Shown here: in pieces, positions 10,392 through 38,020 of the stretch
Numbering within the stretch: the stretch's first letter is position 1
Layout: each line of letters begins with the position of its first letter
IMG/VR virus record: IMGVR_UViG_2737471829_000004
Reading direction: 5' to 3' (one strand)
DNA length: 42,039 nucleotides
Source of the DNA: a virus
Taxonomy: Duplodnaviria > Heunggongvirae > Uroviricota > Caudoviricetes
The notes under the pieces: generated by a model
Databases searched by the model: none
The model's input: the letters and a program-made list of their open reading frames with translations, nothing else
Told to the model about the DNA's origin: nothing
Translations under genes and position numbers: made by a program

Positions 10392-10398
10392 ACAGTAA

Positions 10399-11233: not shown

Positions 11234-11254
11234 CCGGCATCCTGCCGGTTATTT
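11232..11254 (+). terminator. Hairpin terminator after C
   Basis: aaccggca-tcc-tgccggtt stem-loop followed by a T-rich tract. Confidence 0.5.
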
Positions 11255-11324
11255 CCTGTCACCATAATCCCGCACCTGCCATCTGATTTTTTAGACTGCC
11301 ATCAGAGCATTTTTTCAGGGAAGC

Positions 11325-13739: not shown

Positions 13740-13746
13740 GAGGGTT

Positions 13747-18707: not shown

Positions 18708-18903
18708 ACTGAATCAGACATGAAATCAGCTGCACAGATTTTTTAAAACGCGCCACGGGATTTTTAAACCGGTATTTAACGGTGTATGAATCCCGTTTTA
18801 TCTTCCTTCCACTTTCTTTCTCCATTACTCAAATAGCATAACCCCAGATTTTCCCGCACCTCCCGCAAACTGACTGCTCACAAACCATGATGAGCAGCAG
18901 GAC

Positions 18904-19989: not shown

Positions 19990-20903
19990 TTGTCACCCCG
20001 GCATCCATTAAAGCCCTGATGACCTCCTGGCGTAAGGATTTTCAGGGCGGTCTTGAAGACGCCCCGTCGCAGTACAGCAAAATTGCAATGGTGGTGAACT
20101 CCTCCTCCCGCAGTAATACCTATGGCTGGCTGGGTAAATTCCCTGCCATGAAAGAATGGGTGGGTAAGCGAACCATTCAGCAAATGGCAGCGCATGGCTA
20201 CTCCATCGCCAATAAAACGTTTGAAGGCACCGTGGGCGTAAGCCGTGATGACTTCGAGGATGACAATCTGGGCATTTATGCGCCGATGTTTCAGGAGATG
20301 GGCCGTTCTGCGGCAGTTCAGCCGGATGAGCTGATTTTTAAACTTCTGAAAGATGGCTTTACCCAGCCGTGCTATGACGGTCAGAACTTCTTCGACAAGG
20401 AGCATCCGGTATATCCGAATGTGGACGGCACGGGCAGCGCGGTTAATACCTCCAACATCGTTGAGCAGGACAGCTTCAGCGGTCTGCCGTTCTATCTGCT
20501 GGACTGCTCCCGCGCAGTCAAACCGCTGATTTTCCAGGAGCGCCGCAAACCGGAACTGGTCGCACGTACCCGTATCGATGACGACCACGTTTTTATGGAT
20601 AACGAGTTCCTGTTTGGTGCCAGCGCCCGCCGTGCTGCCGGTTACGGCTTCTGGCAGATGGCTGTCGCGGTAAAAGGTGATCTGACGCTGGATAACCTCT
20701 GGAAGGGCTGGCAACTGATGCGTGCGTTTGAAGGTGATGGCGGTAAGAAGCTGGGCCTGAAGCCGACACATATCGTTGTACCGGTCGGGCTGGAAAAAGC
20801 CGCAGAGCAACTGCTTAACCGTGAACTGTTCGCGGATGGCAATACCACCGTCTCCAACGAGATGAAGGGCAAGCTGCAACTGGTTGTCGCTGACTACCTG
20901 TAA
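19986..20903 (+). CDS. Major head subunit (Mu T-like)
   Basis: 305 aa, the size of Mu T; followed by a strong terminator. Confidence 0.85.
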   Translation: MIVTPASIKALMTSWRKDFQGGLEDAPSQYSKIAMVVNSSSRSNTYGWLGKFPAMKEWVGKRTIQQMAAHGYSIANKTFEGTVGVSRDDFEDDNLGIYAPMFQEMGRSAAVQPDELIFKLLKDGFTQPCYDGQNFFDKEHPVYPNVDGTGSAVNTSNIVEQDSFSGLPFYLLDCSRAVKPLIFQERRKPELVARTRIDDDHVFMDNEFLFGASARRAAGYGFWQMAVAVKGDLTLDNLWKGWQLMRAFEGDGGKKLGLKPTHIVVPVGLEKAAEQLLNRELFADGNTTVSNEMKGKLQLVVADYL

Positions 20904-20911
20904 CCGTCATT

Positions 20912-20937
20912 AAAAGGCGGTTCAGACCGCCTTTTAA
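20912..20937 (+). terminator. Rho-independent terminator after the major head gene
   Basis: Perfect 10-bp stem aaaaggcggt-tcag-accgcctttt followed by T residues. Confidence 0.65.
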
Positions 20938-20969
20938 CCTGATTTAAAGGAAAAGGAGGAGCATGTGTT

Positions 20970-21380
20970 ATGTCAGGCACTTCGCTTAATTCACAACGGC
21001 TGGACACTTCTCGCATCACTTGCACGGCGATTATTAAATGCCTTCGTCCGGTCTACCGCCGCGCCGGAATCGCCTTTACACGTGGCGAAAACACCGTGGA
21101 AGTCACCGAAGAACAACTGGCGATCATTCGTGCCGACAGCGTGCTGTCTGTGGTATCTGCATCGTCAGCAGAAACGCTCGCTGAGGCTGGGGGGCTGGAC
21201 GTTCTGGGTATGGGCGATCTGAACGCCCGTATCCGTGCGACCGTTGCCGGTCTGGATAAGGCAAACCCGGAACACTTTACCGCAGGGGGGGAACCCAAAG
21301 TGAAAGCCGTCAGTGCGGCGCTGGGGGAACCGGTGAGCAGTGCGCAAATCAAAGCGGCGCTGGCTGAGGCGGATGCATGA
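20970..21380 (+). CDS. Hypothetical head/tail connector-region protein
   Basis: 136 aa with RBS aaggagga 9 nt upstream of the ATG. Confidence 0.5.
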   Translation: MSGTSLNSQRLDTSRITCTAIIKCLRPVYRRAGIAFTRGENTVEVTEEQLAIIRADSVLSVVSASSAETLAEAGGLDVLGMGDLNARIRATVAGLDKANPEHFTAGGEPKVKAVSAALGEPVSSAQIKAALAEADA

Positions 21381-21802
21381 ATTACGCGACGGTAAATGAC
21401 CTGTGCGCCCGCTATACACGTACGCGGCTGGATATTCTCACCCGCCCTAAAACAGCGGACGGGCAGCCGGATGATGCCGTGGCAGAACAGGCACTGGCAG
21501 ATGCTTCGGCCTTTATTGATGGCTATCTCGCCGCGCGCTTTGTTCTGCCGCTTACCGTCGTCCCCTCACTGCTGAAACGGCAGTGTTGCGTGGTGGCCTG
21601 GTTTTATCTGAATGAATCACAACCCACCGAGCAGATCACCGCTGCCTACAGGGACACAGTGCGCTGGCTGGAACAGGTGCGCGATGGCAAAACAGATCCC
21701 GGCGTGGAAAGCAGGACGGCAGCCTCGCCGGATGGTGAAAACCTTGTGCAGGTGCAGTCTGACGCGCCGGTCTTCTCACGAAAACAGAAGGGGTTTATCT
21801 GA
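21377..21802 (+). CDS. Head-tail joining protein (Mu J-like by position)
   Basis: 141-aa ORF, translationally coupled. Confidence 0.5.
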   Translation: MNYATVNDLCARYTRTRLDILTRPKTADGQPDDAVAEQALADASAFIDGYLAARFVLPLTVVPSLLKRQCCVVAWFYLNESQPTEQITAAYRDTVRWLEQVRDGKTDPGVESRTAASPDGENLVQVQSDAPVFSRKQKGFI

Positions 21803-22350
21803 TGCTGGAAGAAACCGAAGCCGCACTGCTGGCGCGCGTTCGTGAGTTGTTTGGGGCAACCCTGCGGCAGGTGGAACCCCTTACCGGCACATGGACTAAC
21901 GAGGATGTGCACCGTCTCTTTCTGGCCCCGCCATCGGTATTTCTGGCATGGATGGGCTGTGGTGAGGGGCGTACGCGTCGGGAAGTTGAAAGTCGCTGGG
22001 CATTTTTTGTCGTGGCGGAGTTGCTGAACGGGGAACCGGTAAACCGGCCCGGTATTTATCAGATTGTGGAGCGACTGATTGCCGGTGTTAACGGTCAGAC
22101 GTTTGGCCCGACCACCGGGATGAGACTGACGCAGGTCAGAAATCTTTGTGACGACAACCGTATCAATGCCGGTGTGGTGCTTTACGGCGTTCTGTTCAGT
22201 GGCACTACCCCGCTGCCGTCCGTGGTGGACATGGATTCGCTGGATGATTACGAGCGTCACTGGCAGACCTGGAAATTCCCGGACGAAACCCCGGAATTTG
22301 CCGCACATATCAATGTGAATCAGGAAAAGGATCATGATGCTGAAAATTAA
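21802..22350 (+). CDS. Tail completion protein (Mu K-like by position)
   Basis: 182-aa ORF, translationally coupled. Confidence 0.5.
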   Translation: MLEETEAALLARVRELFGATLRQVEPLTGTWTNEDVHRLFLAPPSVFLAWMGCGEGRTRREVESRWAFFVVAELLNGEPVNRPGIYQIVERLIAGVNGQTFGPTTGMRLTQVRNLCDDNRINAGVVLYGVLFSGTTPLPSVVDMDSLDDYERHWQTWKFPDETPEFAAHINVNQEKDHDAEN

Positions 22351-22540
22351 ACCCGCAGCGGGAAAAGCCATCCGTGACCCGCTCACGATGAAATTACTGG
22401 CTCCGGAGGGAGAAGAAAAGCCCCGTAACAGTTTCTGGATACGTCGCCTTGCTGCCGGTGATGTGGTTGAAGTCGGGAGCACCGAAAACACGGCGGATGA
22501 TACCGACGCTGCGCCGAAAAAACGGAGTAAATCGAAATGA
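22334..22540 (+). CDS. Small hypothetical protein preceding the sheath gene
   Basis: 68-aa ORF, coupled. Confidence 0.45.
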
Positions 22541-24024
22541 GCGATATTTCATTTAACGCGATCCCGTCAGATGTTCGCGTTCCTCTGACGTATATCGAAT
22601 TTGATAACAGTAATGCCGTCAGCGGAACACCGGCACCCCGTCAGCGCGTGCTGATGTTCGGGCAAAGCGGAAGTAAAGCCAGTGCGGCACCAAACGTGCC
22701 TGTCCGTATCCGTTCCGGCTCACAGGCCAGTGCGGCGTTTGGTCAGGGTTCCATGCTGGCACTGATGGCAGATGCATTCCTGAACGCTAACCGCGTGGCG
22801 GAGCTGTGGTGTATTCCGCAGGGGAACGGCACCGGTAATGCGGCTGTCGGTGAAATTTCACTGTCAGGAACGGCAGGCGAAAACGGCTCGCTTGTGACTT
22901 ACATTGCCGGTCAGCGACTGGCGGTATCTGTCGCAGCAGGTGCAACGGGAGCGGCGCTGGCTGACCTGCTGGTTGCCCGAATCAAAGGCCAGCCTGATTT
23001 ACCGGTGACGGCAGAAGTTCGCGCAGACAGCGGGGATGATGACACCCATGCAGATGTGGTTCTGAGTGCAAAATTTACGGGTGCATTATCTGCCGTGGAC
23101 GTGCGCTGGAACTATTACGCGGGTGAAACGACCCCTTACGGGATTATCACGGCATTCAAAGCCGCCTCCGGGAAAAATGGCAACCCGGATATCAGCGCAA
23201 GTATCGCGGGAATGGGCGATCTGCAATACAAATATATTGTGATGCCCTATACCGATGAACCGAACCTGAATCTGTTACGCACTGAATTGCAGGAACGCTG
23301 GGGACCGGTCAATCAGGCTGATGGCTTTGCTGTGACAGTGCTGTCCGGCACGTATGGGGACATTTCCACGTTTGGTGTCAGCCGTAATGACCATCTGATT
23401 TCCTGTATGGGGATTGCCGGTGCACCGGAACCGTCATATCTGTACGCCGCCACACTGTGTGCCGTTGCCAGCCAGGCGCTTTCCATCGACCCGGCGCGTC
23501 CACTCCAGACGCTGACGTTGCCCGGAAGAATGCCGCCTGCGGTGGGGGATCGTTTCACCTGGTCAGAACGTAATGCGCTGCTGTTTGACGGCATCTCCAC
23601 GTTTAACGTGAATGATGGTGGTGAAATGCAGATTGAACGCATGATCACGATGTACCGCACAAACAAGTACGGTGACAGCGATCCGTCTTATCTGAACGTG
23701 AATACCATCGCCACGCTGAGTTATCTGCGTTATTCGCTGCGAACCCGCATCACGCAGAAATTCCCGAACTACAAGCTGGCAAGTGATGGCACCCGCTTTG
23801 CCACCGGTCAGGCCGTGGTGACGCCATCCGTGATCAAAACGGAGCTGCTGGCACTGTTTGAAGAATGGGAAAACGCCGGACTGGTCGAGGATTTCGACAC
23901 GTTCAAAGAGGAGCTGTATGTGGCACGTAACAAGGACGACAAAGACCGTCTTGATGTGCTGTGCGGCCCGAATCTGATTAACCAGTTCCGCATTTTCGCG
24001 GCACAAGTTCAGTTCATTCTGTAA
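22537..24024 (+). CDS. Contractile tail sheath protein (Mu L-like)
   Basis: 495 aa, followed directly by a tube-sized gene. Confidence 0.85.
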
Positions 24025-24033
24025 GGAGCATTT

Positions 24034-24390
24034 ATGGCTGGAAATCAGCGTCAGGGGGTGGCGTTCATCCGTGTCAATGGCATGGAGCTTGAAACGATGG
24101 AAGGTGCCTCCTTCACACCTTCCGGCATCACCCGTGAAGAAGTGACCGGCTCGCGGGTTTATGGCTGGAAAGGTAAACCACGTGCCGCAAAGCTGGAATG
24201 CAAAATTCCGGGCGGTGGTGATATCGGTCTGGATGAAATCATCGGCTGGGAAAACATCACGGCAGAGTTTCAGGCAGACACCGGTGAAACCTGGATGATG
24301 GCGAATGCCTGGCAGGCAGATGAACCGAAAAACGACGGCGGCGAAATTTCGCTGGTACTGATGGCAAAACAAAGCAAACGCATTGCATAA
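24034..24390 (+). CDS. Tail tube protein (Mu M-like)
   Basis: 118 aa after the sheath gene with RBS aggag. Confidence 0.8.
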   Translation: MAGNQRQGVAFIRVNGMELETMEGASFTPSGITREEVTGSRVYGWKGKPRAAKLECKIPGGGDIGLDEIIGWENITAEFQADTGETWMMANAWQADEPKNDGGEISLVLMAKQSKRIA

Positions 24391-24399
24391 GGGGAAACA

Positions 24400-24834
24400 A
24401 TGGACGAAATGAATTTAGGTCCTGAAGCACAGGAACTGCATGACAGCATTGTGGCAGAAATTCAGTCCGGAGTGCTGAAACTGAAAGACGGCCTGCCGTT
24501 CGGCACCGGTGACGAGACTGAAATGCAGTATGACGTGACACTGCGTGAACTGACCGCAGGCGATATGATTGATGCACAGGCGGCTGCTGAAAAGCTTGTA
24601 ATGAGCAAGGAAGGTCCGGTGCTGGTCAGTTCCCCGTCCCGGATGGGACTGGAAATGCTGCGCCGACAGATTGCCAGCGTGGGCTGCATCAAAGGCCCGT
24701 TGTCGATGGCGCTGATTCGTAAGCTGTCTGTCGATGACTTCCAGCGTCTGTCGCTGGCCACAGAAATGTACGACATGGCTGTGGCGGCATCGCTGACACA
24801 AGAACGGGGGCGAGTGGCTGCGGTGCCGGAATGA
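24400..24834 (+). CDS. Tail assembly chaperone-like protein
   Basis: 144 aa between tube and tape measure genes. Confidence 0.55.
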   Translation: MDEMNLGPEAQELHDSIVAEIQSGVLKLKDGLPFGTGDETEMQYDVTLRELTAGDMIDAQAAAEKLVMSKEGPVLVSSPSRMGLEMLRRQIASVGCIKGPLSMALIRKLSVDDFQRLSLATEMYDMAVAASLTQERGRVAAVPE

Positions 24835-24978
24835 TATTGAGAAAGCGGCGACAGCGATTGGCGTTATTCTGAAAAGTGGCCCGGAATGGGCCTTATCCCT
24901 TCCGCTGTCCCGCTTTTTCCGGCACTGCCAGCAGGCTAAAACCCTCTCTCAATATCACCGTTAAATCAGGAAATCTCT

Positions 24979-27051
24979 ATGACCGGGAAACGCTTAAAGG
25001 CGTCTGTCATTATTGATCTTAATGGCAATCTTTCCCGGCGTTCCCGCCAGTATTCGAACCAGATAAACGCCCTGTCCCGTAGCGGGCAAAGTTCCCTGCG
25101 TGCCCTACGTATGGAGGTTGTGCGCGTTTCTGGTGCCATTGACAGAATGGGTTCACTGTCAACCCGTACATTCCGAATGCTGTCAGCCGGGGCGCTGGGT
25201 ATTGCTGGCGTGGGTTACACCGCCAATAAACTGTTTATTGGTGCAGCCGCCCAGCGTGAGCAACAGATTATCGCCATGAACTCGCTGTATCACGGCGATA
25301 AGGTCAGAGCGCAGGCCATGATGGCCTGGGCAAAGCAGAACGCGAAGGACACCACGTGGGGGCTGAGTGGTGTTCTGGATGAGATCCGTTCGTCGAAAGG
25401 CTTCGGCATGACGGATGAACAGACGAAACAGTTCATCACCATGTTGCAGGATCAGGGGGCCATGCACGGCTGGGATTTACCCACTGCACAGGGTGCCTCA
25501 CTGCAACTGAAACAGATGTTTGCCCGCCAGCAAATCACGGCGGCGGATGCCAACCTGCTGACCGGTTACGGTATCAACGTTTATCAGGCGCTGGCGGATG
25601 CAACGGGAACGGACGTTAAAAAAATCCGTGATCTGGGTACAAAGGGCAAGCTGGGCATGAAATCCATTCTGACGGTATTCAGAACGCTGTCAGAACAGTC
25701 AAAAGGTGCACAGGCCAGTGCGATGAACTCCTGGGACGGGATGTTCGCCCAGATGGAAGCTAACCTGCTTGAATTTCGCATAAAGGTGGCAAACAGCGGC
25801 CCCTTTGAAGAAATCAAGAACGAGATGCGCCGGGTGCTTAACTGGCACGACATGGCGGATAAATCCGGGGAACTTGACGCACTGGCAGAAAACATTGGTC
25901 AGAAATTTCTGACCACGTTCAGAACGGTAAAAATCGCGGCGCAGGAATTATGGCGCTGGCTGAAACCGGGTAAAGATGCGCTGGCATGGGTTGACCAGAA
26001 TATTGTCAGCCTGAAAAAACTGGCTGCTGTTCTGGTGTCTGTCTGGCTTGCCAATAAAGCCCTGAGAGCAGGCTGGGCTGTGGCAAAACCCTCATGGCAG
26101 GTTGCCAGTTATCCGTTTAAAACCGGGCGTCGTATGTGGCGCTGGATGCGAAACCGCAAACGTGGGCAGGCAGGTCTGCCGGTCCCGGATGCCATGACGT
26201 CTGAGACGCTGTTGCAGGGTATCGGCATTCAGCGTGTGTTTGTCATCAACTGGCCCCGTGGATTTGGTGGCTACGGGAGTGGCGGCGGTCGTCGCGGACG
26301 GAGCGGCGGAAGAATGGCCCCGCTGTTACCCCGCCAGCCGTTATTGCTGTCCGGGCCACAGCCGCTGGCATTACCTGCACCACGCCCTGTACTGGCATTA
26401 CCCCCACCCGGCGTACCGGTAACAGCACGGCCTGCACCATTACCTTTACCCGGTAAATCCGGTCTTCTGAGCAGGCTTGCAGGCAGTGCTGCCGGGCAAC
26501 TGGTTACGGGAACGGTCGGAAAGCTGGCTGATGCCGGGCGTGCTGTTGGCGGATGGTTTTCCGGTATCGGAAACAAACTTGCAGGCAGTGCGATCGGTCG
26601 GGTTGTGACAAAAGGTGCCGGGGCGCTGGGCTGGATGGGGAAAGGTGCCGGTCGTGCGTTGTCACGTCTGGGTGGCCCGGTAATGGGGGCACTCCAGCTT
26701 GCCCCCGTCCTGATGGATGAGCAGGCGTCAACCCATGAAAAAGCAGGCGCAATTGGCAGTACAGCCGGTGCATGGCTCGGCGGTGCCGTTGGCAGCCTTG
26801 CCGGACCGCTGGGTACGGTTGCCGGTGCCACGCTGGGCAGTGTCGCCGGGGAGTATCTGGGCGGTTTTGTAACCGACCTGTATCAGAAATGGACGGCCCC
26901 GGATAAGGAACCGCAGGAACAAAAAGTGAATGCGGAAGCCTCGCTGCGCGTCGAACTTGGCGAGGGGTTACGTCTGACCAGTTCCCGCGTCACCGAGGAC
27001 GGTATGGGGCTGAATATTTACGCGGGCGATAACTACATTACAGGCTGGTAA
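24979..27051 (+). CDS. Tail tape measure protein
   Basis: 690 aa; coiled-coil N-terminal half and Gly/Ala/Pro-rich low-complexity middle; position between chaperone and baseplate genes. Confidence 0.8.
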
Positions 27052-27055
27052 AACC

Positions 27056-28543
27056 ATGTTTGAAGATGCTTTAAATGCCGTTAATGCTGTCCGGGATAAA
27101 ATCAGCGGTGGTAAGAAAACAACCGGCAAAGGCACGTTTCGTAACGTGCCGTTTCTCGTCATCGAGGAGCAAAAACAGGCTGGCGGACGTCGCCTGGTTA
27201 AACGCGAGTACCCGTTACGTGATACCGGCGGCGTCAATGACCTGGGGAAAAAGCTTCGCTCCCGTACATTCAGCGCCTGCATTCTGAACAGCAACGCAGA
27301 AACAGCCAGAGATGAAGCGGGTGCGCTGATGGATGCTCTTGATGCTCCGGGTAGCGGTGAGCTGGTACATCCTGATTTCGGCACTGTGGACGTCATGGTG
27401 GATTCATGGGAATGCCGCACTAAAGCGGATGAACTGAATTATTACGCGTTCACCGTTACCGTTTATCCGTCGTTGCAGGATACTGCCCCGGACGCAGAGA
27501 CAGACACCAGTGCAGCCGTACCGGCACAGGCCGTTGCTGTAACCGGTTCTCTGGGAGATACGCTATCCTCTGTCTGGCAGACCGTAAAAGATGGCACTGC
27601 GGCGGCAACCGCCGTGATGGAAGCTGTAACCGGTGTCATCGATGATATCAGTGATGCGGTGGACAATCTGGGGGTTACGCAGACTGTCAGCGGTCTGATG
27701 GGATCGCTTTCTGCGATGAAAGGCTCTGTGACCAGCCTGATTAACCAGCCTGCCATGCTGGCCTCCTCGCTGATGGGGGCGCTGTCCGGCGTTTCATCGT
27801 TATGCGATACCCGGACAGCATTTTCCACATGGAACCGTCTGGCGCAGCGATTCGAACGTCGCCATGCCGCCACCGCAGGCAGACAGGGGGCAATCACAAC
27901 CTCGTACAACAGTCCGGTTGCAGAAAAAAATATTGCCACACTGAACTACGTCATGCTGGCAGCAGCACAGACATACCGAGCGGAGGCAGCAAGCCAGGCA
28001 CTGACTGCGGCACTGGATTTCAGTCGCCGGATGGATAATGCCGCCCGTGCACCTGTACTGGATGCCCCGTCCACCACAACCGGCACAGCCAGCGGGGCCA
28101 GCAGCACATCCGCTACCGTCACACAGGGACAGTTACAGTTAACTGCCATAACCCCGGACGGCGGCTTTTCACAGGTATCCTTTTCAGACAGTGGTACAGC
28201 CACGCCCCCGGTATTTGAAAGTGTGTCCGATATCGGAAAAACAGCCGCCATGCTGGGGGCTGCACTGGATACCGTCATTCTGACGGCATCTGAGCAGGGC
28301 TTTTCGACAGACAGCGTTCAGCTTACGCAACTGCGTCTGCTGGTTGTTGCCGACCTGGAAAAACGCGGGCTGCAACTGGCGGGCAGTGAAACGCACCGCC
28401 TGCCGGAGACGATGCCTGCAATGGTGGCCCTGTACCGTTACACAGGAAACAGCCGGAACTGGCAACGGCTGGCCCGCAGGAACGGTATCAGCAACCCGTT
28501 GTTTGTTCCCGGTGGTGTCAGTATTGAGGTGATTAATGAGTAA
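27056..28543 (+). CDS. DNA circularisation protein (Mu N-like)
   Basis: 495 aa, position after the tape measure matching the Mu order. Confidence 0.7.
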
Positions 28544-29675
28544 TACCGTCACGCTGCGAACGGATGGCAGGCTTTTTACCGGCTGGACGTCAGTCTCTGT
28601 CACCCGCTCGATTGAATCCGTAGCCGGATATTTTGAGCTGGGGGTGAACGTGCCACCGGATACGGATTTATCCGGGCTGGCACCGGGGAAGGCGTTCACG
28701 CTGGAAATCGACGGGCAGATTGTCTGCACCGGTTATATCGATTCACGGCGACGCCAGATGACTGCTGACAGTATGAAAATCACTGTCGCCGGACGTGACA
28801 AAACGGCTGACCTGATTGACTGTGCTGCCGTTTACAGTGGCGGACAGTGGAAAAACCGCACACTGGAGCAGATTGCGCGTGACCTGTGCGCCCCTTATGG
28901 CGTTACCGTTCGCTGGGAGCTTTCCGATAAGGAAAGTTCGGCAGTTTTTCCCGGCTTCACGCTGGACCATTCAGAAACCGTTTATGAGGCGCTGGTGCGT
29001 GCCTCCCGCGCACGCGGTGTACTGATGACCAGCAATGCCGCCGGAGAGCTGGTATTCAGCCGGGCTGCCAGCACAGCTACTGATGAGCTGGTTCTCGGAG
29101 AAAATCTGCTGACACTGGATTTTGAGGAAGACTTCCGCGACCGGTTCAGCGAATACACCGTCAAGGGGTATGCCCGCGCAAACGGTGCTGAGGGTGATGA
29201 TATTGATGCGAAAAGTATCGTCTCCCGGAAAGGGACCGCCACTGACAGTGATGTAACCCGTTACAGACCGATGATCATCATTGCTGACAGCAAAATTACG
29301 GCGAAGGATGCACAGGCCCGCGCCCTGCGTGAGCAACGCCGCAGACTGGCAAAATCCATCACCTTTGAGGCTGAAATTGACGGATGGACTCGCAAGGACG
29401 GGCAACTCTGGATGCCGAACCTGCTGGTCACTATTGATGCCTCGAAATATGCCATCAAAACCACGGAATTACTGGTCAGCAAAGTCACCCTGATACTGAA
29501 TGACCAGGACGGGCTGAAAACCCGCGTCAGCCTTGCACCACGCGAAGGCTTTCTGGTGCCGGTTGAAAGCGACCGTAAAAACAGGAAAGGCGGCGACAGT
29601 AACGGCGGTATTGATGCGCTGGTTGAAGATTATTATCGCAGACACCCGGAGAAAACGCCGCCGTGGAAAGAGTAA
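28536..29675 (+). CDS. Baseplate hub protein (Mu P-like)
   Basis: 379 aa, tail-late operon order. Confidence 0.7.
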
Positions 29676-30256
29676 ATGATTCCGCCCTGAACCGCCTGCT
29701 GACGCCGCTGATGCGTCGTGTGCGCCTGATGCTTGCGCGCGCTGTTGTTAACGTGATTAACGACGGGCGAAAGGTTCAGAACCTGCAGGTCGGCCTGCTG
29801 GATGATGAGGAATCTGATGAAGTGGAGCGCCTGCAAAATTACGGGCATTTCAGCGTTCCCCTGCCGGGAGCAGAGGCGCTGATTGCCTGTGTAGGCGCAC
29901 AACGTGATCAGGGGATTGCCGTTGTGGTGGAAGACCGCCGCTACCGCCCGACAAATCTTGAACCGGGTGATGCAGGCATTTACCACCACGAGGGGCATCG
30001 TATCAGGCTGACAAAGGACGGACGCTGCATCATTACCTGTAAAACGGTTGAGGTTTACGCTGATGAAAGTATGACCGTTGACACACCCAGAACCACGTTT
30101 ACCGGCGACGTTGAGATCCAGAAAGGTCTGGGCGTTAAAGGTAAAAGCCAGTTCGACAGCAATATTACTGCCCCGGATGCCATCATCAATGGCAAATCGA
30201 CGGATAAGCATATCCACCGTGGCGACAGCGGCGGAACCACGGGGCCAATGCAATGA
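29663..30256 (+). CDS. Baseplate central spike protein (Mu Q-like)
   Basis: 197 aa, position. Confidence 0.65.
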   Translation: MERVNDSALNRLLTPLMRRVRLMLARAVVNVINDGRKVQNLQVGLLDDEESDEVERLQNYGHFSVPLPGAEALIACVGAQRDQGIAVVVEDRRYRPTNLEPGDAGIYHHEGHRIRLTKDGRCIITCKTVEVYADESMTVDTPRTTFTGDVEIQKGLGVKGKSQFDSNITAPDAIINGKSTDKHIHRGDSGGTTGPMQ

Positions 30257-30690
30257 CCGATTTAGCCATTATCTGGACGAACGGACGCGGCGATATTGCA
30301 CAGGATGGCATTGATATGCTGACCGACGACAGCCTGACAACCGATGTGACAATCTCCCTGTTTACAGACCGGCGCGCGCTGGATTCTGACACGCTGCCGG
30401 ATGGTTCAGATGATCGCCGTGGATGGTGGGGTGACAGTTACCGCGACCGCCCCATCGGTTCGCGGTTGTGGCTGTTATCACGTGAAAAAGCCACACCGGA
30501 TACGCTGGAACGCGCCAGAGGGTATGCCGAAGAGGCGCTGGAATGGCTGAAAACAGCGGGCCGGGTAAGTGCGATTAACGTCAGAGCGGAACAGTTACAT
30601 CAGGGCTGGTTATACCTCTACATTGCACTGACATTACCGGATGGTTCCGTTATTCCTTATGAGTTTAAAGCAGCATTTAACGGGGTTTAA
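30253..30690 (+). CDS. Baseplate protein (Mu V-like, gp25-type)
   Basis: 145 aa, position. Confidence 0.65.
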   Translation: MTDLAIIWTNGRGDIAQDGIDMLTDDSLTTDVTISLFTDRRALDSDTLPDGSDDRRGWWGDSYRDRPIGSRLWLLSREKATPDTLERARGYAEEALEWLKTAGRVSAINVRAEQLHQGWLYLYIALTLPDGSVIPYEFKAAFNGV

Positions 30691-31773
30691 ATGGCTTATT
30701 CACCACCGACATTATCATCGCTGATTGCCCGTACAGAACAGAATATTGAACAGCGCCTGCCGGGTAGCTGGCCTCAGGCCCGTGAAAAAACGCTGAGTGC
30801 CATTGCTTATGCTCAGGCGGGCCTTGCTGCCGGTTGTCACGAGCATATTTCATGGGTTGGACGGCAGATTATCCCGTCGACAGCAGATGAAGATGAGTTG
30901 CTGGAGCACTGCCGGTTCTGGGGCGTGCGCCGCAAACAGGCGACAGCCGCCAGCGGCCCGCTGACTGTCACCACATCGGCAGCGACCACCATTCCTGCCG
31001 GTACACGCTGGCAGCGTGCTGATGGTGTGGTTTACAGCCTGGCTGATGCCATTGTGATTGACCGTGCAGGAACGACGGAAATTACCGTTACCGCACTGGC
31101 TGCCGGTGAAGCAGGAAATACCGGTGAGAATACCCTTTTAACGTTGATCACCCCGGTTGCCTGTGTTGTTTCCGATGCCATCACTGTAAAAGGGTTTTCC
31201 GGTGGGGCTGATATTGAGAGTGCAGCGGAGCTGCTGTCACGGCTGGAATATCGTGTCCAGTATCCTCCGTTCGGCGGTAATCAGTTTGATTACGTCCGCT
31301 GGGCACGTGAAGTCAGCGGCGTTACCCGTGCCTGGTGTTTTCCGACATGGAAAGGCGGTGGCACAGTCGGGGTGACGTTTGTTATGGATAACCGGAGCAA
31401 TATTTTTCCACAACCGGCAGACGTGGAACGCGTGGCAGATTATATCGCCGGTCATACTGACCCGATCACCGGTCTGATTGTCGGACAGCCTGACGGTGTA
31501 AATGTCACTGTATTTGCGCCAAAGGCAAAGCCGGTAAATCCACGGATTTATATATCACCGAAGACAGCCGAACTGAAACAGGCTATTACCCACGCCATTA
31601 ATACCATGTTTTTTAATGAGGTGACGCCGGGCGGCGCACTTGCCCCCTCCCGTATTATCCGTGCGGTGGCAGGTGTTACCGGTCTGGATGATTTTGAAGT
31701 GCGTTTCCCGACAGAGATCCAGCGTTCGGAGAATACGGAACTGTTAACACCGGGGACAATTGAATGGCTGTAA
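30691..31773 (+). CDS. Baseplate wedge protein (Mu W-like, J-type)
   Basis: 360 aa, position. Confidence 0.7.
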   Translation: MAYSPPTLSSLIARTEQNIEQRLPGSWPQAREKTLSAIAYAQAGLAAGCHEHISWVGRQIIPSTADEDELLEHCRFWGVRRKQATAASGPLTVTTSAATTIPAGTRWQRADGVVYSLADAIVIDRAGTTEITVTALAAGEAGNTGENTLLTLITPVACVVSDAITVKGFSGGADIESAAELLSRLEYRVQYPPFGGNQFDYVRWAREVSGVTRAWCFPTWKGGGTVGVTFVMDNRSNIFPQPADVERVADYIAGHTDPITGLIVGQPDGVNVTVFAPKAKPVNPRIYISPKTAELKQAITHAINTMFFNEVTPGGALAPSRIIRAVAGVTGLDDFEVRFPTEIQRSENTELLTPGTIEWL

Positions 31774-32306
31774 CACCCTATCAGACGGCCTTTCTGCAAT
31801 TACTGCCGTCAGGGCTTGCCTGGAATAAAAGCCCCGACAGCAAATTATCTGCGCTGGCGCAGGCCATCAGCGACGTGATTGCCACTGCGGCGGATGATGC
31901 GCGGCAAATGCTGCGGGAGCGTTTCCCGTCCACATCCCGCTGGTATCTGGGGGAGTGGGAATCATTTCTGGGGTTGCCGGACTGTACCAGCGAAAACGGC
32001 ACCTTGTCCGAACGCCAGCGGGCTGCCGCGAATAAAATGCGTATGACCGGCAATCTGAGTCGGCGCTTTTATGAATGGCTGGCTGCGCAGTACGGTTTTA
32101 CCGTCAGGCTGACGGATTCCACAGAAGGCCAGTGGGTTACGCAGGTCAATATTTACGGTATTAAAAATTATCGCAACGCAACGGTGCTGGATAATGTCCT
32201 GACGCCGTTACGTGTTTATGAATCGGGTGCGCTGGAATGTTTACTGGAGAAATATAAACCCGCGCATCAGATTTATAAATTTGTTTACCATGACGGAGAT
32301 AACTAA
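31764..32306 (+). CDS. Baseplate / tail-fibre attachment protein (Mu R-like)
   Basis: 180 aa, position directly before the tail fibre gene. Confidence 0.65.
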   Translation: MAVTPYQTAFLQLLPSGLAWNKSPDSKLSALAQAISDVIATAADDARQMLRERFPSTSRWYLGEWESFLGLPDCTSENGTLSERQRAAANKMRMTGNLSRRFYEWLAAQYGFTVRLTDSTEGQWVTQVNIYGIKNYRNATVLDNVLTPLRVYESGALECLLEKYKPAHQIYKFVYHDGDN

Positions 32307-33661
32307 TGTTTTATATTGATAACGACAGCGGCGTAACCGTCATGCCGCCCGTATCCGCCCAGCGTAGTGCTATCGTTCGCTGGTTTTCAGAAGGTGACGG
32401 GAATAATGTTATCACATGGCCCGGCATGGACTGGTTTAATATTGTTCAGGCGGAGTTATTAAACACGCTGGAAGAAGCTGGTATTCAACCGGATAAAACA
32501 AAATTAAACCAGCTTGCACTGTCCATTAAAGCCATTATGAGCAATAACGCGCTGCTGATAAAAAATAACCTCAGCGAAATTAAAACTGCCGGGGCATCAG
32601 CACAGCGTACAGCACGTGAAAATCTGGATATCTATGATGCCAGCCTGAACAAAAAAGGACTCGTTCAGCTAACCAGTGCCACTGACAGCCCCAGTGAAAC
32701 GCTGGCAGCCACCGCAAAAGCGGTGAAAATTGCGATGGATAATGCCAATGCCCGTCTGGCAAAAGACCGGAACGGAGCAGATATTCCCAATAAGCCGCTG
32801 TTTATCCAAAACCTCGGTTTACAGGAAACGGTAAACAAGGCTGGTAACGCTGTTCAGCGTTCTGGCGATACAATGACCGGAAAACTGAATCTACCACAGA
32901 CATCTGCATTCGGCGTTAATACCGATAATGCACTGGGTGGTAATTCCATTACTCTCGGAGATAACGACACCGGTATTAAACAGGGCGGCGATGGTGTCCT
33001 TTTATTCTATTTAAATGGACAACTGATATTTGGGCTTCAACCCACATCCGCTGATTTTTATAAGCGAGTTGCCTACATTCATCAGGGAGTAGCTCCAGAT
33101 GGGAGTGGCGCATTTGCAGACCAGTTAAATAATGCCACCGCGCCTTTTGTTCAGACGCAGTTTGCCTGGAATCCCACTCCTGGCGGTCATTACGTACCGA
33201 TAGCTAAGGGCTTGTCCATTCGCAATGGACAGGGGTATCCAGGTGCGGTCAGCTTTGGTTATTTACTAACTGAACAAATGGGATTTCCCATACCATGCAT
33301 TCATATGCGTGGAGATTACGGAGCTGATGCTTTGTGGCAGTTTAACCCGAACGATAAATCTTTTATTTCACCGGGTGCTCTTGTTGCGGGTGGCATCCGT
33401 TATAACACCGATGGAAATATATTTGGCGGGTGTTGGGGTTCAAATTTAGCTGATTATCTCAATAGCACATATGTAAGAGACATTCGACTTGGTAGCGCAG
33501 AATCAATATCAGCATGGCGAGGCCCTGGTTACTGGGATACTTCTGGATATGTTCTGACCGCAGCCGGAAACAGCAACACCGATGAATTTATTGATACATT
33601 AACCAGAAGGCCTATTCAGAAGTTGATTGGTGGGACATATTATAACGTTGTGAGTATTTGA
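32306..33661 (+). CDS. S: Tail fibre protein S (constant part fused to the variable part in the current G orientation)
   Basis: 451 aa; the reading frame runs through the left gix site at about codon 165; the variable part shares motifs with S' (NALGG.SI.LGDNDTG.KQ.GDG). Confidence 0.85.
32801..32826. repeat. gix recombination site (left), inside S
   Basis: ttatccaaaacctcggtttacaggaa; its inverted partner at about 35635-35660 is identical in 25 of 26 positions. Confidence 0.85.
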
Positions 33662-33662
33662 C

Positions 33663-34190
33663 ATGATGCATTTAAAAAACATTAAAGCAGGGAACCCAAA
33701 AACACCTGAACAATACCAGTTAACCAAAAAAGCTGGAGTGGTCTGGCTTTATACTGAAGATGGTAAAAACTGGTACGAAGAACAAAAAAACTTTCAACCA
33801 GATACTATAAAAATTGCATACGATAAAAATAATGTGATTGTTACCGTAAGCAAAGATGTTTCAACGATTAACCCGGAAGGTTTAAGTGTTGTTGAAGTAT
33901 CCGATATTACGGCAAATCGTCGCGCAGACAATAACGGAAACTGGATGTTTCTGGATGGTAAAGTAGTAAAGCGGGAATATACAAAACAGGAGCTGCAACA
34001 GCAGGCAGAGTTACAAAAATCCGCTTTGCTTTCCGAAGCGGAGTCTGTGATTCAACCGCTGGAACGTGCTGTCAGGCTGAATATGGCAACTAATGAGGAA
34101 CGCGCACGACTGGAGTCATGGGAACGCTACAGTGTTCTGGTCAGCCGTGTGGATACGGCAAATCCTGAATGGCCACAAAAGCCTGAATAA
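33663..34190 (+). CDS. U: Tail fibre assembly protein U
   Basis: 175 aa beginning [23 protein letters not shown], paralogous to U' on the opposite strand. Confidence 0.85.
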
Positions 34191-34218
34191 AAATTAAGGC
34201 CCGATAGCGGGCCTTGTC

Positions 34219-34752
34219 TCATTCTGGTTGTTCCGGGAATGTTACAGGAAGAACAGAGGTATCTGTGGCATCAACCTGCTGCATGTATAACATCCAGTTA
34301 ATGAGTCTTTGCCTGTCTGAATCGCTGATAATTCCCAGCGCAAGCTGTGTTTGCCAGCACTGCGTTTCCTCTCTGGCCTGTCGCAGCAAAATCTGTTTCT
34401 GAATTTCAGCCAGTTGACGTAGTTCTTCATCAGTCCGGGGGCGTTTCATGACCTTGCCATCCTGAAACACCCAGTCACCGAGAATATCGGCCCGGCGATT
34501 CGCTGTCGTGTCGGGTAATTCGACAACGCTCATTCCTTCCGGGTTAATAGACGACACATCTTTTTCAATATAGCGAATGATACCTCTGTCATCGTAAGCG
34601 ATTTTTAGTGTGTCTGCCTGAAAGGCTTTTTGTGCCTCATACCAGTTCTGACCATCTTCAGCGTAAAGCCAGATAACACCATGTCTCTTTGTTAACTCAT
34701 ACTGTTCCAGTGTTTTAGCATTACCCGCTTTTATGTTCTTTAAGTGCATCAT
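34219..34752 (-). CDS. U': Alternative tail fibre assembly protein U'
   Basis: 177 aa beginning [25 protein letters not shown], paralog of U in inverted orientation. Confidence 0.85.
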   Translation of the reverse strand: MMHLKNIKAGNAKTLEQYELTKRHGVIWLYAEDGQNWYEAQKAFQADTLKIAYDDRGIIRYIEKDVSSINPEGMSVVELPDTTANRRADILGDWVFQDGKVMKRPRTDEELRQLAEIQKQILLRQAREETQCWQTQLALGIISDSDRQRLINWMLYMQQVDATDTSVLPVTFPEQPE

Positions 34753-34753
34753 A

Positions 34754-35634
34754 TTAAACGCTCGCTACATTATACCAGGTGCCATTTATATACTTTTGAA
34801 CGGGTCTGTAATAAACGCCCGCTATATTATCGGCAGAGTTGGACCCTGTATCCTGAACATTAATACCAGACAATACATGACCTGACGGGCACTTGAAATT
34901 CCATGTTTGCCAGTTGTTCACACCATGATATTGCTGTGAACCAAGACGAACATCTTTTACGTATCGGGAATCAAAGTTACTCCAGTTACTTGGTTGTATG
35001 TGACCGTTTACAGCAAATATCACCGAATTATCTGTATTTCGCTGACTATAGAAATGCCAGCCTGAATCATCACCAAGCTCTGCAACAGTTGGTCTTGATG
35101 AAGTGCCCCATAAATTAAAACCTACGTTTTTCGTGGAGTTGTTGGAGCTGGATAGCGTGAATTTTTTACCATCCCCGGCCTGAACGTTTTTAAAAGCAAT
35201 AGCAACTCCATTCTGAAAGCGGAATACTCGCTGACTATTAGCGTAAACATCCAGAATACCGTCTCCATTCTGTTTAAATCCGGTATCATTATCACCAAGA
35301 ACAATAGAGCTACCACCTAACGCATTCGTCGTACCAACTCCAAGGCTGCCATTAATGACGGCATTAACAAGAATATTTAGTGCATCCCATTTCAGCGTCA
35401 TCAGGTCTTTTGTTGTGGTGCTTTGTTTGCTTCTCCATTTGAAATATTCATTGCCGTTGTCGCCTGTTTCAAACCACATGTATGAATCAGTGTCACCATC
35501 GGCATCATTTTTAAATCCAATCTTCGCCCAGTCAGTATTTCGAATCCAGGCAAGGATTGAGTCATTTTCAAAAGTAAGCCCACCGGACAAAGTATCGCCA
35601 TTTTTTTGCACGGCATTACCAGCCCTGTTTACCG
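34754..35634 (-). CDS. S': Alternative tail fibre variable part S' (no independent start; expressed only after G inversion)
   Basis: Open frame from the right gix site to 34754; upstream sequence ..[20 protein letters not shown].. parallels the S junction ..[20 protein letters not shown]... Confidence 0.8.
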
Positions 35635-35660
35635 TTTCCTGTAAACCGAGGTTTTAGATA
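35635..35660. repeat. gix recombination site (right)
   Basis: ttcctgtaaaccgaggttttagataa, inverted copy of the left gix. Confidence 0.85.
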
Positions 35661-35715
35661 ATGGCCGTTTCCGGCCTGCATGGCATGATTTGCGATTTTG
35701 GACGGGAGATTCAGC

Positions 35716-36297
35716 GTGCTGATTGGCTATGTAAGGGTATCAACAAATGACCAGAATACAGACCTGCAACGAAACGCTCTTGTTTGTGCAGGATGTGAAC
35801 AAATATTTGAAGATAAATTAAGCGGAACAAGGACAGACAGACCTGGATTAAAGCGCGCTTTAAAGCGTCTTCAAAAAGGTGACACACTGGTTGTCTGGAA
35901 ACTGGATCGCCTCGGGCGAAGCATGAAACATCTGATTTCTCTCGTCGGAGAACTAAGGGAGCGAGGGATTAATTTTCGCAGCCTTACTGACAGTATTGAT
36001 ACGTCATCCCCAATGGGGCGTTTTTTCTTCCACGTTATGGGTGCCCTGGCTGAAATGGAACGAGAACTAATCATCGAGCGAACGATGGCTGGACTTGCTG
36101 CCGCCAGAAATAAAGGCCGTATTGGTGGGCGACCACCTAAACTAACCAAAGCGGAATGGGAGCAGGCCGGGCGTTTATTAGCACAAGGAATCCCCCGCAA
36201 GCAGGTTGCATTGATCTACGATGTGGCCCTGTCAACTCTGTATAAAAAACACCCCGCGAAACGAGCGCATATAGAAAACGACGATCGAATCAATTAA
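35716..36297 (+). CDS. gin: Gin serine DNA invertase
   Basis: 193 aa from a GTG start (MLIGYVRVSTNDQ...); resolvase/invertase catalytic N-terminus with serine and C-terminal HTH. The track ORF starts 18 nt upstream at a TTG. Confidence 0.9.
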   Translation: MLIGYVRVSTNDQNTDLQRNALVCAGCEQIFEDKLSGTRTDRPGLKRALKRLQKGDTLVVWKLDRLGRSMKHLISLVGELRERGINFRSLTDSIDTSSPMGRFFFHVMGALAEMERELIIERTMAGLAAARNKGRIGGRPPKLTKAEWEQAGRLLAQGIPRKQVALIYDVALSTLYKKHPAKRAHIENDDRIN

Positions 36298-36320
36298 ATC
36301 GATCGGTAATACAGATCGAT
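36280..36320. promoter_or_regulatory. GATC cluster upstream of com-mom (methylation-dependent control region)
   Basis: Three GATC sites within about 40 bp (acGATCgaat, aaatcGATCgg, caGATCgatt) just upstream of the com-mom operon. Confidence 0.5.
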
Positions 36321-36391
36321 TATGCCCCAATAACCACACTCAACCCATGATGTTTTTTAAGATAGTGGCGAATTGATGCAAAGGAGGTGAG

Positions 36392-36580
36392 ATGAAATCA
36401 ATTCGCTGTAAAAACTGCAACAAACTGTTATTTAAGGCGGATTCCTTTGATCACATTGAAATCAGGTGTCCGCGTTGCAAACGTCACATCATAATGCTGA
36501 ATGCCTGCGAGCATCCCACGGAGAAACATTGTGGGAAAAGAGAAAAAATCACGCATTCTGACGAAACCGTGCGTTATTGA
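36392..36580 (+). CDS. com: Com, zinc-finger translational activator of mom
   Basis: 62 aa with CxxC...CxxC (CKNCNK...CPRCKRH); overlaps the 5' end of mom. Confidence 0.85.
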
Positions 36581-37247
36581 GTATGAAGGCCAGATTGTTG
36601 GCTATGGTTCAAAGGAGCTGCGCGTTGAAACCATATCCTGCTGGCTGGCCCGCACAATTATTCAGACAAAGCACTATTCCCGCCGTTTTGTGAATAACTC
36701 TTACCTCCACCTGGGAGTGTTCAGCGGACGCGATCTGGTTGGCGTTCTCCAGTGGGGATATGCCCTTAACCCCAACTCAGGTCGTCGTGTCGTGCTTGAA
36801 ACGGATAACCGGGGCTATATGGAGTTGAATCGCATGTGGCTACACGACGACATGCCCCGCAACTCTGAATCACGGGCCATCAGCTACGCGCTGAAAGTTA
36901 TCAGATTACTGTATCCGTCAGTGGAGTGGGTTCAGTCCTTTGCTGACGAACGCTGCGGACGCGCAGGCGTTGTGTATCAGGCGTCGAATTTTGATTTTAT
37001 TGGCAGCCATGAAAGCACGTTCTACGAGCTGGATGGTGAGTGGTATCACGAGATAACGATGAACGCAATTAAGCGCGGTGGACAACGAGGCGTGTATTTA
37101 CGGGCTAATAAAGAGCGTGCCGTGGTGCACAAATTTAATCAGTATCGCTACATCAGGTTCCTGAACAAGCGAGCAAGGAAGCGACTAAATACTAATCTAT
37201 TCAGGATCCAACCATATCCAAAATCAACTCTGACTAGTATCAAATAA
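36501..37247 (+). CDS. mom: Mom, DNA adenine modification enzyme (anti-restriction)
   Basis: Sequence from [33 protein letters not shown] onward recognised as Mu Mom; last gene before the right end. The true start codon is uncertain. Confidence 0.85.
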
Positions 37248-37306
37248 CTTATTTATTCCTGCTGAAAAGCAGCTCCTCATGGCATAAAATTGTTCACGTG
37301 AGTTTA

Positions 37307-37344
37307 AAATGACCAAATGGCAGTACAGTATTTGGTCATTTTAT
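37307..37344 (+). terminator. Hairpin downstream of mom
   Basis: 12-bp inverted repeat aaaatgaccaaa...tttggtcatttt with a large loop, followed by T residues. Confidence 0.45.
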
Positions 37345-37376
37345 GGGGTGAATTTTAAAGTCAAAACGATGGTAAG

Positions 37377-37718
37377 GTGCATATGAAAAAAATACTCATA
37401 GCAGTACTACTTTGCTTTGGTGTTCTTTCTGCTAATCAGGCAATAGCGGCTGTTACCTTAAGCGGTAAGTATCCTGCATGCATATCTGCTAATGAATTCG
37501 AGCGATTAAGCTCAATTTTGCAACACGAAGATCAAGAGGCGTTTGAAGAGATCTTTAAGACATCATGCTTTATGCCTAAAAAGGGGGTTAAAGTTGATAA
37601 AGTTGTTTCTATGGGGTGGACCAGTGGAGTTGCGCATGTCAAAGTTTATGTAAAAGGCAATCTTTACGATCTTTGGACTAACACCGAAAATCTTCAGTCC
37701 GAGAAGGCTGGTAAATAA
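37377..37718 (+). CDS. Small secreted protein of unknown function (cargo/moron candidate)
   Basis: 113 aa; signal peptide MKKILIAVLLCFGVLSANQAIA-AV; RBS aaggtg 5 nt upstream; locally AT-rich; lies inside the prophage between mom and attR. Confidence 0.5.
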   Translation: MHMKKILIAVLLCFGVLSANQAIAAVTLSGKYPACISANEFERLSSILQHEDQEAFEEIFKTSCFMPKKGVKVDKVVSMGWTSGVAHVKVYVKGNLYDLWTNTENLQSEKAGK

Positions 37719-37899
37719 CGCTGTAATCAACGTGTAATCACATCTCCTACCAGCTATCGCCTGATAAAGTTAGGTGATAGCTATTTCAATACTCTCTAGT
37801 TTCACTGAAAGCACGAAACTTAATACCTCCATTCCAGATTGCTTAATAATCGAGCATTTTTATCTTGAATGTTTTTGCGCGCTTTATCAGCCATACCCT

Positions 37900-38020
37900 A
37901 AGTGATCCCCATGTAATGAATAAAAAGCAGTAATTAATACTGCTGTTTCATTTGAAGCGCGAAAGCTAAAGTTTTCGCATTTATCGTGAAACGCTTTCGC
38001 GTTTTTCGTGCGCCGCTTCA
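37900..38020. promoter_or_regulatory. attR region with transposase-binding end sites (R1-R3-like)
   Basis: tgaagcgcgaaagctaaag, cgtgaaacgctttcgcg and the terminal ..tttttcgtgcgccgcttca match the recalled Mu right end. Confidence 0.7.

Follow-up and report, generated by a model that had tools for sequence, protein, structure and literature searches.

The window, that is, the whole stretch of 42,039 nucleotides analysed here, encloses a Mu-type prophage carrying two tail-fibre cassettes followed by the invertase gene gin and the genes com and mom (Table 1). The genes are arranged as in phage Mu, running S-U / U'-S' / gin / com / mom (Sc / Sv U U' Sv' / gin com mom). The left end of the prophage starts with TGTATTGATTCACTTGAAG and the right end terminates with GCGCCGCTTCA, both matching the Mu attL and attR ends, and the 5-bp target duplication CATGC flanks the prophage on each side. 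The insertion lies in an E. coli RHS gene, and deletion of positions 924-38025 in silico restores an intact RHS gene (99.6% identity and 0 gaps compared with E. coli GB089). A near-identical prophage of E. coli 2014C-3075, with 2 mismatches over ~11.3 kb of shared prophage sequence, is inserted in ddpA as opposed to RHS in the window, and the junction of the window occurs in none of the complete E. coli genomes searched. Across 16 related loci, 14 different right-flank sequences were found, two of which are common to G+/G- pairs, and the prophage is on record from both E. coli and Salmonella. The Mu-type ends, the 5-bp duplication of the target and the variety of insertion sites identify the element as a Muvirus prophage. 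Outside the fibre cassettes the remaining prophage sequence is ~98% identical to Mu and shares its transposon ends and a 5-bp duplication; the left 24 kb are 98% identical to both Mu and PhiR68_1. Relative to Mu, an extra 113-aa ORF is present between mom and the right end, and it has no family in Pfam or PHROGs.

Table 1. Features of the prophage and its tail-fibre locus (positions in the window)
Feature	Position	Strand	Description
Mu-type prophage enclosing the switch	924..38020	+	assigned by its ends, target duplication and Mu identity
Sc	32306..32813	+	constant N-terminal part of S, ending at the crossover and not inverted
gixL	32802..32827	+	26-bp Gin site, TTATCCAAAACCTCGGTTTACAGGAA; central TC at 32814-32815
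Sv	32814..33661	+	variable C-terminal part of S, now fused to Sc
U	33663..34190	+	tail-fibre assembly protein, partner of Sv, 175 aa; Caudo_TAP E = 6.7e-37; phrog_136
Hairpin	34196..34215		G+C-rich, terminator-like, AAGGCCCGCTATCGGGCCTT; between convergent U and U'
U'	34219..34752	-	tail-fibre assembly protein, partner of Sv', 177 aa; Caudo_TAP E = 3e-28
Sv'	34754..35649	-	alternative variable C-terminal fibre part; assigned by fusion frame and P2 gpH similarity
gixR	35636..35661	-	26-bp Gin site, TTATCTAAAACCTCGGTTTACAGGAA; centre GA on the plus strand at 35648-35649
gin	35716..36297	+	serine DNA invertase, GTG start, 193 aa; phrog_125 DNA invertase
5' part of gin	35716..35838		presumed Fis-dependent sis enhancer; DNA 100% identical to Mu

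The cassettes are bounded by two 26-bp gix sites. On the plus strand the central dinucleotide is TC in gixL and GA in gixR, so the sites are inverted; each carries the same asymmetric dinucleotide, TC, on its own strand, as in a G segment. The interval from gix to gix comprises 2,860 bp, with Sv-U on the plus strand and U'-Sv' on the minus strand. An earlier note on this DNA had described these sites as inverted 26-bp copies differing at one position, which is correct (C in gixL, T in gixR, at site position 6), but its coordinates were 1-2 nt off: the 26-mers at 32801-32826 and 35635-35660, taken literally, are out of register, with 17 mismatches that a shift of 1-2 nt mends. The site gixL is identical to Mu gixL and corresponds to codons 166-174 of S; the same note placed the left site near codon 165. 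The T6 variant of gixR, which also occurs in D108, SfMu, Tongde and vB_YpM_3, creates a TAA in the outer half of the site, whereas Mu gixR has C6. At up to 3 mismatches, gixL and gixR are the only gix matches in the 42-kb window (0 expected from 100 shuffles), and at up to 7 mismatches the window, the segment itself included, contains none beyond these two; one gix-like match with 8 mismatches lies at 1775-1800. With only two gix-like sites at the 7-mismatch threshold, a shufflon-like multi-site system of the p15B Min type is ruled out. Inverted similarity reaches beyond the sites to 79 nt at 82% identity (32802-32880 and 35583-35661), and around the gix core 30 identical bases are common to both repeats.

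The S and S' products are tail-fibre proteins. In the present orientation S is an ORF of 451 aa (32306-33661), composed of Sc and Sv and followed by U, which bears out the proposal that S-U is the expressed unit, and U' is silent. Residues 1-168 of S, the constant part, are 100% identical to Mu S, and Sc contains the Pfam Phage_fiber_2 domain at aa 113-153. The S' reading frame of the minus strand runs uninterrupted from the codon next to the TAA made by T6, at 35653, to a stop at 34754. Sv' lacks both a start codon and a promoter of its own; its RefSeq designation as a "pseudogene, missing N-terminus" is an artefact of the switch. Inversion in silico at the central dinucleotide produces an in-frame Sc-Sv' ORF of 467 aa followed by the 177-aa U', as anticipated in the earlier note. 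The locus accordingly has the exon structure of a G segment, with a constant 5' exon outside and two in-frame 3' exons inside, each accompanied by its own assembly gene. The two variable parts share 46% identity over aligned columns and differ in their distal tips. Sv matches the silent cassette of the Yersinia phage Tongde at 99-99.6% identity, vB_YpM_3/23 at 76.5% and either Mu cassette at only 29-30%. For Sv', identity is 82.8% to the C-terminal part of P2 gpH (aa 379-669), ~50% to a P1 fibre and 49% to Mu Sv; the last ~45 residues of Sv', likely the receptor-binding tip, diverge from P2 gpH. U and U', which had been taken for diverged paralogs, share 55% identity and both belong to Caudo_TAP. 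U is 80% identical to Mu U and 78% to P2 gpG; U' is 66% identical to Mu U', and its C-terminal half has just 31-38% identity to P2 gpG. At the position equivalent to the hairpin between them, terminators are annotated on both strands in D108.

Adjacent to gixR lies the serine invertase expected of a G segment, with a resolvase domain, Ser9 and a C-terminal HTH (Pfam Resolvase and HTH_7). All 193 residues are identical to Mu Gin, and 569 of the 582 nucleotides of the gene match Mu gin. The N-terminus, VLIGYVRVSTNDQ, includes the catalytic Ser9, whose role in invertase catalysis has been described (PMC3575834). The enhancer is presumed, by analogy with Mu, to sit in the 5' part of gin; location of the enhancer within the invertase gene is attributed to Kahmann et al. 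1985, as cited in PMC10434027 and PMC3798978. Nucleotides 1-123 of gin are identical to Mu, the first difference being at nt 124, and the 4 synonymous differences at nt 124-153 could fall inside the enhancer. A simple scan with the Fis consensus, uninformative as to the enhancer, yielded no strict site pair at a spacing of 48 bp. Compared with Mu, ~11 substitutions are present in the 54-nt gap that separates gixR from the first codon of gin.

Evidence on orientation comes from exact-protein look-up of S (451 aa) and of the predicted fusion (467 aa); searches with the right junction, as present and as inverted in silico, in E. coli genomes returned mostly matches to other prophage types and were unsuited to orientation counts. 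The present S protein is found in 49 contigs, and the exact predicted fusion protein is on record in 14-15 contigs. In six loci bearing the fusion, the G segment has 0-1 mismatches to the reverse complement of that in the window, and the outer half-sites have not moved, with C6 beside Sc and T6 beside gin. Two pairs of assemblies, L012/L022 and L013/L021, share an insertion site within each pair and show 0 mismatches over 10,520 nt outside G, their G segments being exact reverse complements. These pairs, which answer the call of the earlier note for a check on both orientations, show, by comparison of public assemblies, that the segment flips in lysogens of this prophage. Both orientations hence occur in nature, and the exchange falls within gix. 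The same pair of cassettes is found in the opposite orientation in Yersinia phage Tongde.

The structural elements named in the earlier note are all present, each matching phage Mu, and nothing in the sequence argues against a switch. The locus is almost certainly the invertible G segment of a Mu-type prophage, operating as a site-specific DNA inversion switch. As extrapolated from Mu biochemistry, Gin dimers would bind the two inverted 26-bp gix sites and, assisted by host Fis bound to the enhancer inside the 5' end of gin, would cleave both sites at the central TC dinucleotide, after which one half of the tetramer would rotate by 180 degrees before religation, so that ~2.84 kb would be turned over. 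The Gin/gix/Fis mechanism and the G segment of Mu-like Yersinia phages have been described (PMC3575834, PMC3798978, PMC10434027). The promoter, the start codon and the first ~170 codons of the fibre gene (Sc) are not part of the invertible DNA, so the locus reads Sc-Sv and U in its present orientation and Sc-Sv' and U' in the other. Each variable fibre end moves together with its own assembly chaperone, and the hairpin between the convergent U and U' keeps the two units apart. The two fibres may bind different cell-surface receptors, probably LPS-core variants, in which case a lysogen population would release phage with two host ranges; by analogy with Mu, we infer that inversion switches host range.

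Three other explanations of these observations can be weighed against a functional Gin-dependent switch. It is highly unlikely that the switch is frozen in the strain of the window, for instance through lack of gin expression or a weakened enhancer, with S-U as the permanent locus and the other cassette as a silent relic. The substitutions in the gap between gixR and gin and the synonymous changes at gin nt 124-153 would fit such a loss, but the gixR-gin sequence is identical in loci of both orientations, with 0 mismatches over the whole right arm, the Gin protein does not differ from that of Mu, and both silent genes are intact ORFs.

The flips seen in assemblies might also have arisen without Gin, through RecA-dependent homologous recombination between the inverted repeats of 36-79 nt. 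Such an origin would fit the 30 identical bases at the gix core and the 82% identity that the repeats retain across 79 nt, as well as the resolution of the sequence data, which confine the crossover no more closely than to the interval from site position 6 to position 37. This route is extremely unlikely: 30 bp of perfect identity only just reach the minimum for recombination by RecA, an intact invertase with the protein sequence of Mu Gin adjoins canonical sites identical to its known targets, and in related ST131 loci the exchange lies within the 26-bp gix sequence, which there has non-homologous flanks. There is, finally, a negligible chance that the opposite orientations were produced by misassembly across a short inverted repeat. 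Most loci do come from draft short-read assemblies, but the identical repeat is only ~30-36 bp, below read length, and the alternative orientation is seen with precise gix junctions in six independent assemblies and in the isolated phage Tongde; moreover, a mixed population in a lysogen would itself indicate inversion.

The closest known system is the Mu G segment, with which the window shares Gin (100%), gixL and residues 1-168 of Sc. The differences reside in the variable cassettes and in the length of the segment, which is 3,084 bp in Mu versus 2,860 bp in the window. The same pair of cassette types as in the window is found in vB_YpM_Tongde, vB_YpM_3 and vB_YpM_23 (genus Muvirus; PMC10434027), the Mu-like Yersinia phages for which a G segment, Gin and an LPS-core receptor have been described (PMC10434027). 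The expressed cassette of Tongde is 84-85% identical to Sv' of the window and its silent cassette matches Sv, so the Tongde segment is in the flipped state. Unlike the prophage of the window, these phages were isolated as virions, with Y. pestis as the plating host; the segment as a whole is 89-91% identical in DNA, and the S protein of vB_YpM_3 is longer (511 aa), with 63% identity to Sv of the window over the whole variable part. Other Fis-dependent DNA invertase switches include the P1 Cin/cix C segment, e14 Pin, p15B Min and Salmonella Hin/hix (PMC3798978). The invertase of the window is the Gin orthologue identical to that of Mu, and not Cin, Pin, Min or Hin, and the two crossover sites set the window apart from the multi-site p15B shufflon. 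In P1, e14, p15B and Hin systems a serine invertase lies beside a segment bounded by 26-bp inverted sites; in P1, e14 and p15B the C-terminal parts of tail fibres are swapped, while Hin controls a promoter instead of swapping coding exons.

The switch is ordinary and well understood. Inversion of the Mu G segment is among the founding examples of site-specific recombination and of host-range switching by phages; close relatives of the very segment in the window have already been sequenced and described, so that the locus carries little weight as a discovery. It is of use for annotation, as typing of prophage fibres should weigh both orientations. It is possible, but rather improbable, that Sv (~283 aa) is an uncharacterised receptor-binding module and that the flip toggles between receptors of different genera, beyond E. 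coli LPS-core variants. This idea is suggested by the identity of Sv to Mu or P2 fibres, which is at most 44%, by the finding that Sv-like sequences at >45% identity are confined, within the set of isolated phages searched, to three Mu-like phages with Yersinia pestis as plating host, and by the record of the prophage from both E. coli and Salmonella. Were it true, such cross-genus toggling would extend the reach of a Mu relative beyond that documented for Mu.

The cassettes are also a modest data point on the exchange of fibre modules between Mu-like and P2-like phages, one being P2 gpH-like and the other of a rarer type common to phages plating on Yersinia. P2 resembles the window in its H and G genes, through Sv' and U, respectively, but has a single fixed fibre and no invertase, and the likeness is lost over the tip of Sv' and the C-terminal half of U'. 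Just upstream of the part of P2 H that is homologous to Sv' there is a gix-like remnant, TTATCGAATATCTCGGTTTACAGGAA, with 3 mismatches, and a P2-like prophage in E. coli 08_3323 carries the invertible cassette of the window at 95.6% identity.

The invertible region of the window is a textbook Mu G segment (2,860 bp) carrying another pair of fibre cassettes, in which S consists of a constant N-terminal part (Sc) joined to one of two variable parts (Sv or Sv'). By a repeat scan, with 32200-36600 also read directly and scanned for ORFs, 32802-32880 pairs with 35583-35661 in an inverted repeat of 79 nt (82% complementary) that contains the Gin recombination sites gixL and gixR. The two sites differ by one base, at position 6, and are the sole matches in 42 kb at ≤3 mismatches in a pattern search, with none in 100 shuffles; their asymmetric centre reads TC on the own strand of each, so they are mutually inverted. 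Given this alignment, uniqueness and orientation, the pair of sites is real and not due to chance. The earlier note had described paired, inverted 26-bp copies with one difference, which holds, but its literal coordinates are out of register (17 mismatches) and align after a shift of 1-2 nt; apart from this slip, its observation and its interpretation as a G segment with alternative fibre cassettes are correct. A multi-site shufflon was rejected, as no gix-like site beyond gixL and gixR was found in the window at up to 7 mismatches.

Features of the fibre switch and the adjoining part of the window
Feature	Coordinates	Strand	Remarks
S	32306-33661	+	451 aa
gixL	32802-32827	+	TTATCCAAAACCTCGGTTTACAGGAA; within S, occupying its codons 166-174
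U	33663-34190	+	175 aa
G+C-rich hairpin	34196-34215		between U and U', which converge on it
U'	34219-34752	-	177 aa
S' frame	34754-35653	-	open down to its stop, beginning one codon past the in-site TAA
gixR	35636-35661	-	TTATCTAAAACCTCGGTTTACAGGAA; T6 variant
gin	35716-36297	+	GTG start, 193 aa
113-aa ORF	37377-37718	+	between mom and the prophage right end; apparent signal peptide MHMKKILIAVLLCFGVLSANQAIA
Truncated RHS ORF	37887-40850	-	continues into the Mu right end

The Pfam assignments, with which those of PHROGs concur, are Phage_fiber_2 for Sc, Gp34_trimer for the Sv' part, Caudo_TAP for both U and U', and Resolvase and HTH_7 for Gin; com, mom and the 113-aa ORF are found downstream of gin. 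U and U' are 55% identical overall (64-76% over the first 100 residues, 31-40% in the C-terminal half). In-silico inversion at the central dinucleotide yields an uninterrupted Sc-Sv' ORF of 467 aa, with the start of U' 2 nt past its stop. Thus, the proposals that the left site lies inside S at about codon 165, that the minus-strand frame is open from the right site into S', that inversion fuses the constant part in frame to the S' variable part, and that U and U' are diverged paralogs are all borne out. The T6 base of gixR (C6 in gixL) converts CAA to an in-frame TAA, in the outer half of the site, just upstream of the silent Sv'; Mu has CAA at this position, and the T6 form is common to the window, D108, SfMu, Tongde and vB_YpM_3. 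In comparison locus L001 (8055-8951), the RefSeq annotation of Sv' is that of a pseudogene ("missing N-terminus"), an artefact to which the switch gives rise.

The segment does flip, and both of its orientations exist in nature. In the protein collection, the 451-aa S of the present orientation is encoded on 49 contigs, and the predicted 467-aa protein has exact matches on 14-15 contigs of E. coli and Salmonella. In six fusion-encoding loci, the 2,860-bp segment matches the reverse-complemented segment of the window, perfectly in four loci and with a single mismatch in the other two, and the junctions are exactly as predicted. Two present-orientation loci are inserted at the same site as a flipped one (L022 as L012, L021 as L013). 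Within each pair, the 10,520 nt outside G agree without a mismatch, and one G segment is the exact reverse complement of the other. As these pairs differ only by the reversed G, the same lysogen lineage has been sampled in both states, in strains other than that of the window, so that the check for both orientations proposed earlier has a positive answer in public assemblies. The Yersinia phage Tongde also has the cassette pair of the window, but inverted, while its outer half-sites remain beside Sc and gin. That the opposite orientations reflect misassembly is unlikely, since six assemblies, all independent, and the genome of one phage show the flipped state, and a switch frozen in the strain of the window is improbable as well, given that the flipped loci have an identical gixR-gin sequence. 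In natural G loci, the crossover is confined to site positions 6-37; RecA-mediated inversion would be an unparsimonious explanation, requiring recombination over only about 30 bp of identity next to an intact dedicated invertase.

Directly observed are the gix sites, the invertase, the alternative exons, each in frame and accompanied by its chaperone, and the two natural states. According to established work on Gin and Hin (PMC3575834, PMC3798978; Kahmann 1985 and Plasterk 1984 via PMC10434027), gix is bound by dimers of Gin, which are activated by an enhancer that lies within the invertase gene and is occupied by Fis; Ser9 cuts at the central dinucleotide, with subunit rotation and religation completing the inversion. 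In the window, Gin dimers at gixL and gixR, activated through the enhancer, would likewise invert G by Ser9 cleavage, rotation and religation; the putative Fis enhancer is presumably intact, its region being identical or nearly so to that of Mu. By analogy with Mu, the two fibres would confer different host ranges; the receptor to which the Yersinia relatives attach is the LPS core (PMC10434027).

Gin of the window is identical to that of Mu in 193/193 aa and 569/582 nt (the first difference being gin nt 124); gixL and aa 1-168 of S are fully identical to their Mu counterparts. Judged by sequence, the variable cassettes are not those of Mu: either Mu cassette is only 29-30% identical to Sv, and Mu Sv is 49% identical to Sv'. 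These cassettes are already known from sequenced, described phages: the silent cassette of Tongde is 99-99.6% identical to Sv, the expressed fibre of vB_YpM_3/23 is 76.5% identical over the C-terminal 247 aa of Sv, and the Tongde and vB_YpM_3 counterparts of Sv' are 84-85% identical to it. In D108, terminators are annotated at the position equivalent to the U/U' hairpin.

Similarity extends to phage P2, in which gpH aa 379-669 are 82.8% identical to Sv', with divergence in the last ~45 residues of Sv'. The similarities of fibre and chaperone to P2 are uncoupled between the cassettes: gpG is 78% identical to U, which is paired with the non-P2-like Sv, whereas it is only 51% identical (31-38% in the C-terminal half) to U', which is paired with the gpH-like Sv'. 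P2 lacks an invertase, yet its gene H contains, directly upstream of the Sv'-homologous part, a gix-like sequence with 3 mismatches (TTATCGAATATCTCGGTTTACAGGAA; L010 1533-1558), apparently left over from a former crossover site. The P2-like prophage of E. coli 08_3323 (L007 4703-7742) carries the invertible cassette of the window (95.6% identity over 32920 to 36104) joined to another constant part, of the P2 H type, with a different left site (TTATCGAATACC…), and represents an exchange of modules by Mu-like and P2-like phages. Together with the identities to Yersinia Mu-like phages and gpH, this identifies the cassettes as modules common to both groups, a known pattern.

A related invertible fibre segment occurs in opposite orientations in two ST131 strains, E. 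coli EC958 (L008 3008-6114) and JJ1887 (L009 2836-5942), in a prophage remnant near trpA, with the inner half-sites cleanly swapped. All that there is of the adjoining recombinase gene is a 180-nt pseudogene, pointing either to the action of a different invertase in trans or to a flip that preceded the decay of the gene. In a relative (L024, GCA_029943985.1; 1-6000), the Mu portal protein is followed in the gene calls by a short ORF with a FluMu_N domain and then by a baseplate J gene that is truncated, which suggests that a large internal deletion has removed head and tail genes; the G segment and gin are intact.

The switch of the window is located in a Mu-type prophage, which begins with the Mu left-end sequence at 924, finishes with the right end (…GCGCCGCTTCA) at 38020 and is flanked on both sides by a 5-bp duplication, CATGC. 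It interrupts an RHS-repeat toxin gene, 1-923 and 38021-42039 being outside the prophage; deletion of 924-38025 restores collinearity with the intact RHS gene of E. coli GB089 (99.6% identity, no gaps). The prophage-host junction of the window is absent from the complete E. coli genomes in the collection. The left 24 kb of the prophage are ~98% identical to Mu, D108 and phage PhiR68_1, and a prophage of E. coli 2014C-3075, inserted elsewhere (at ddpA), has 2 mismatches in ~11.3 kb of common prophage sequence. The 113-aa ORF, which has no family in Pfam or PHROGs, may be a cargo (moron) gene; at its position, no gene is annotated in Mu, and the "D108-specific" gene of D108 is unrelated to it. 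Its cluster occurs on several hundred contigs, which come from E. coli, Salmonella, Shigella and Cronobacter.
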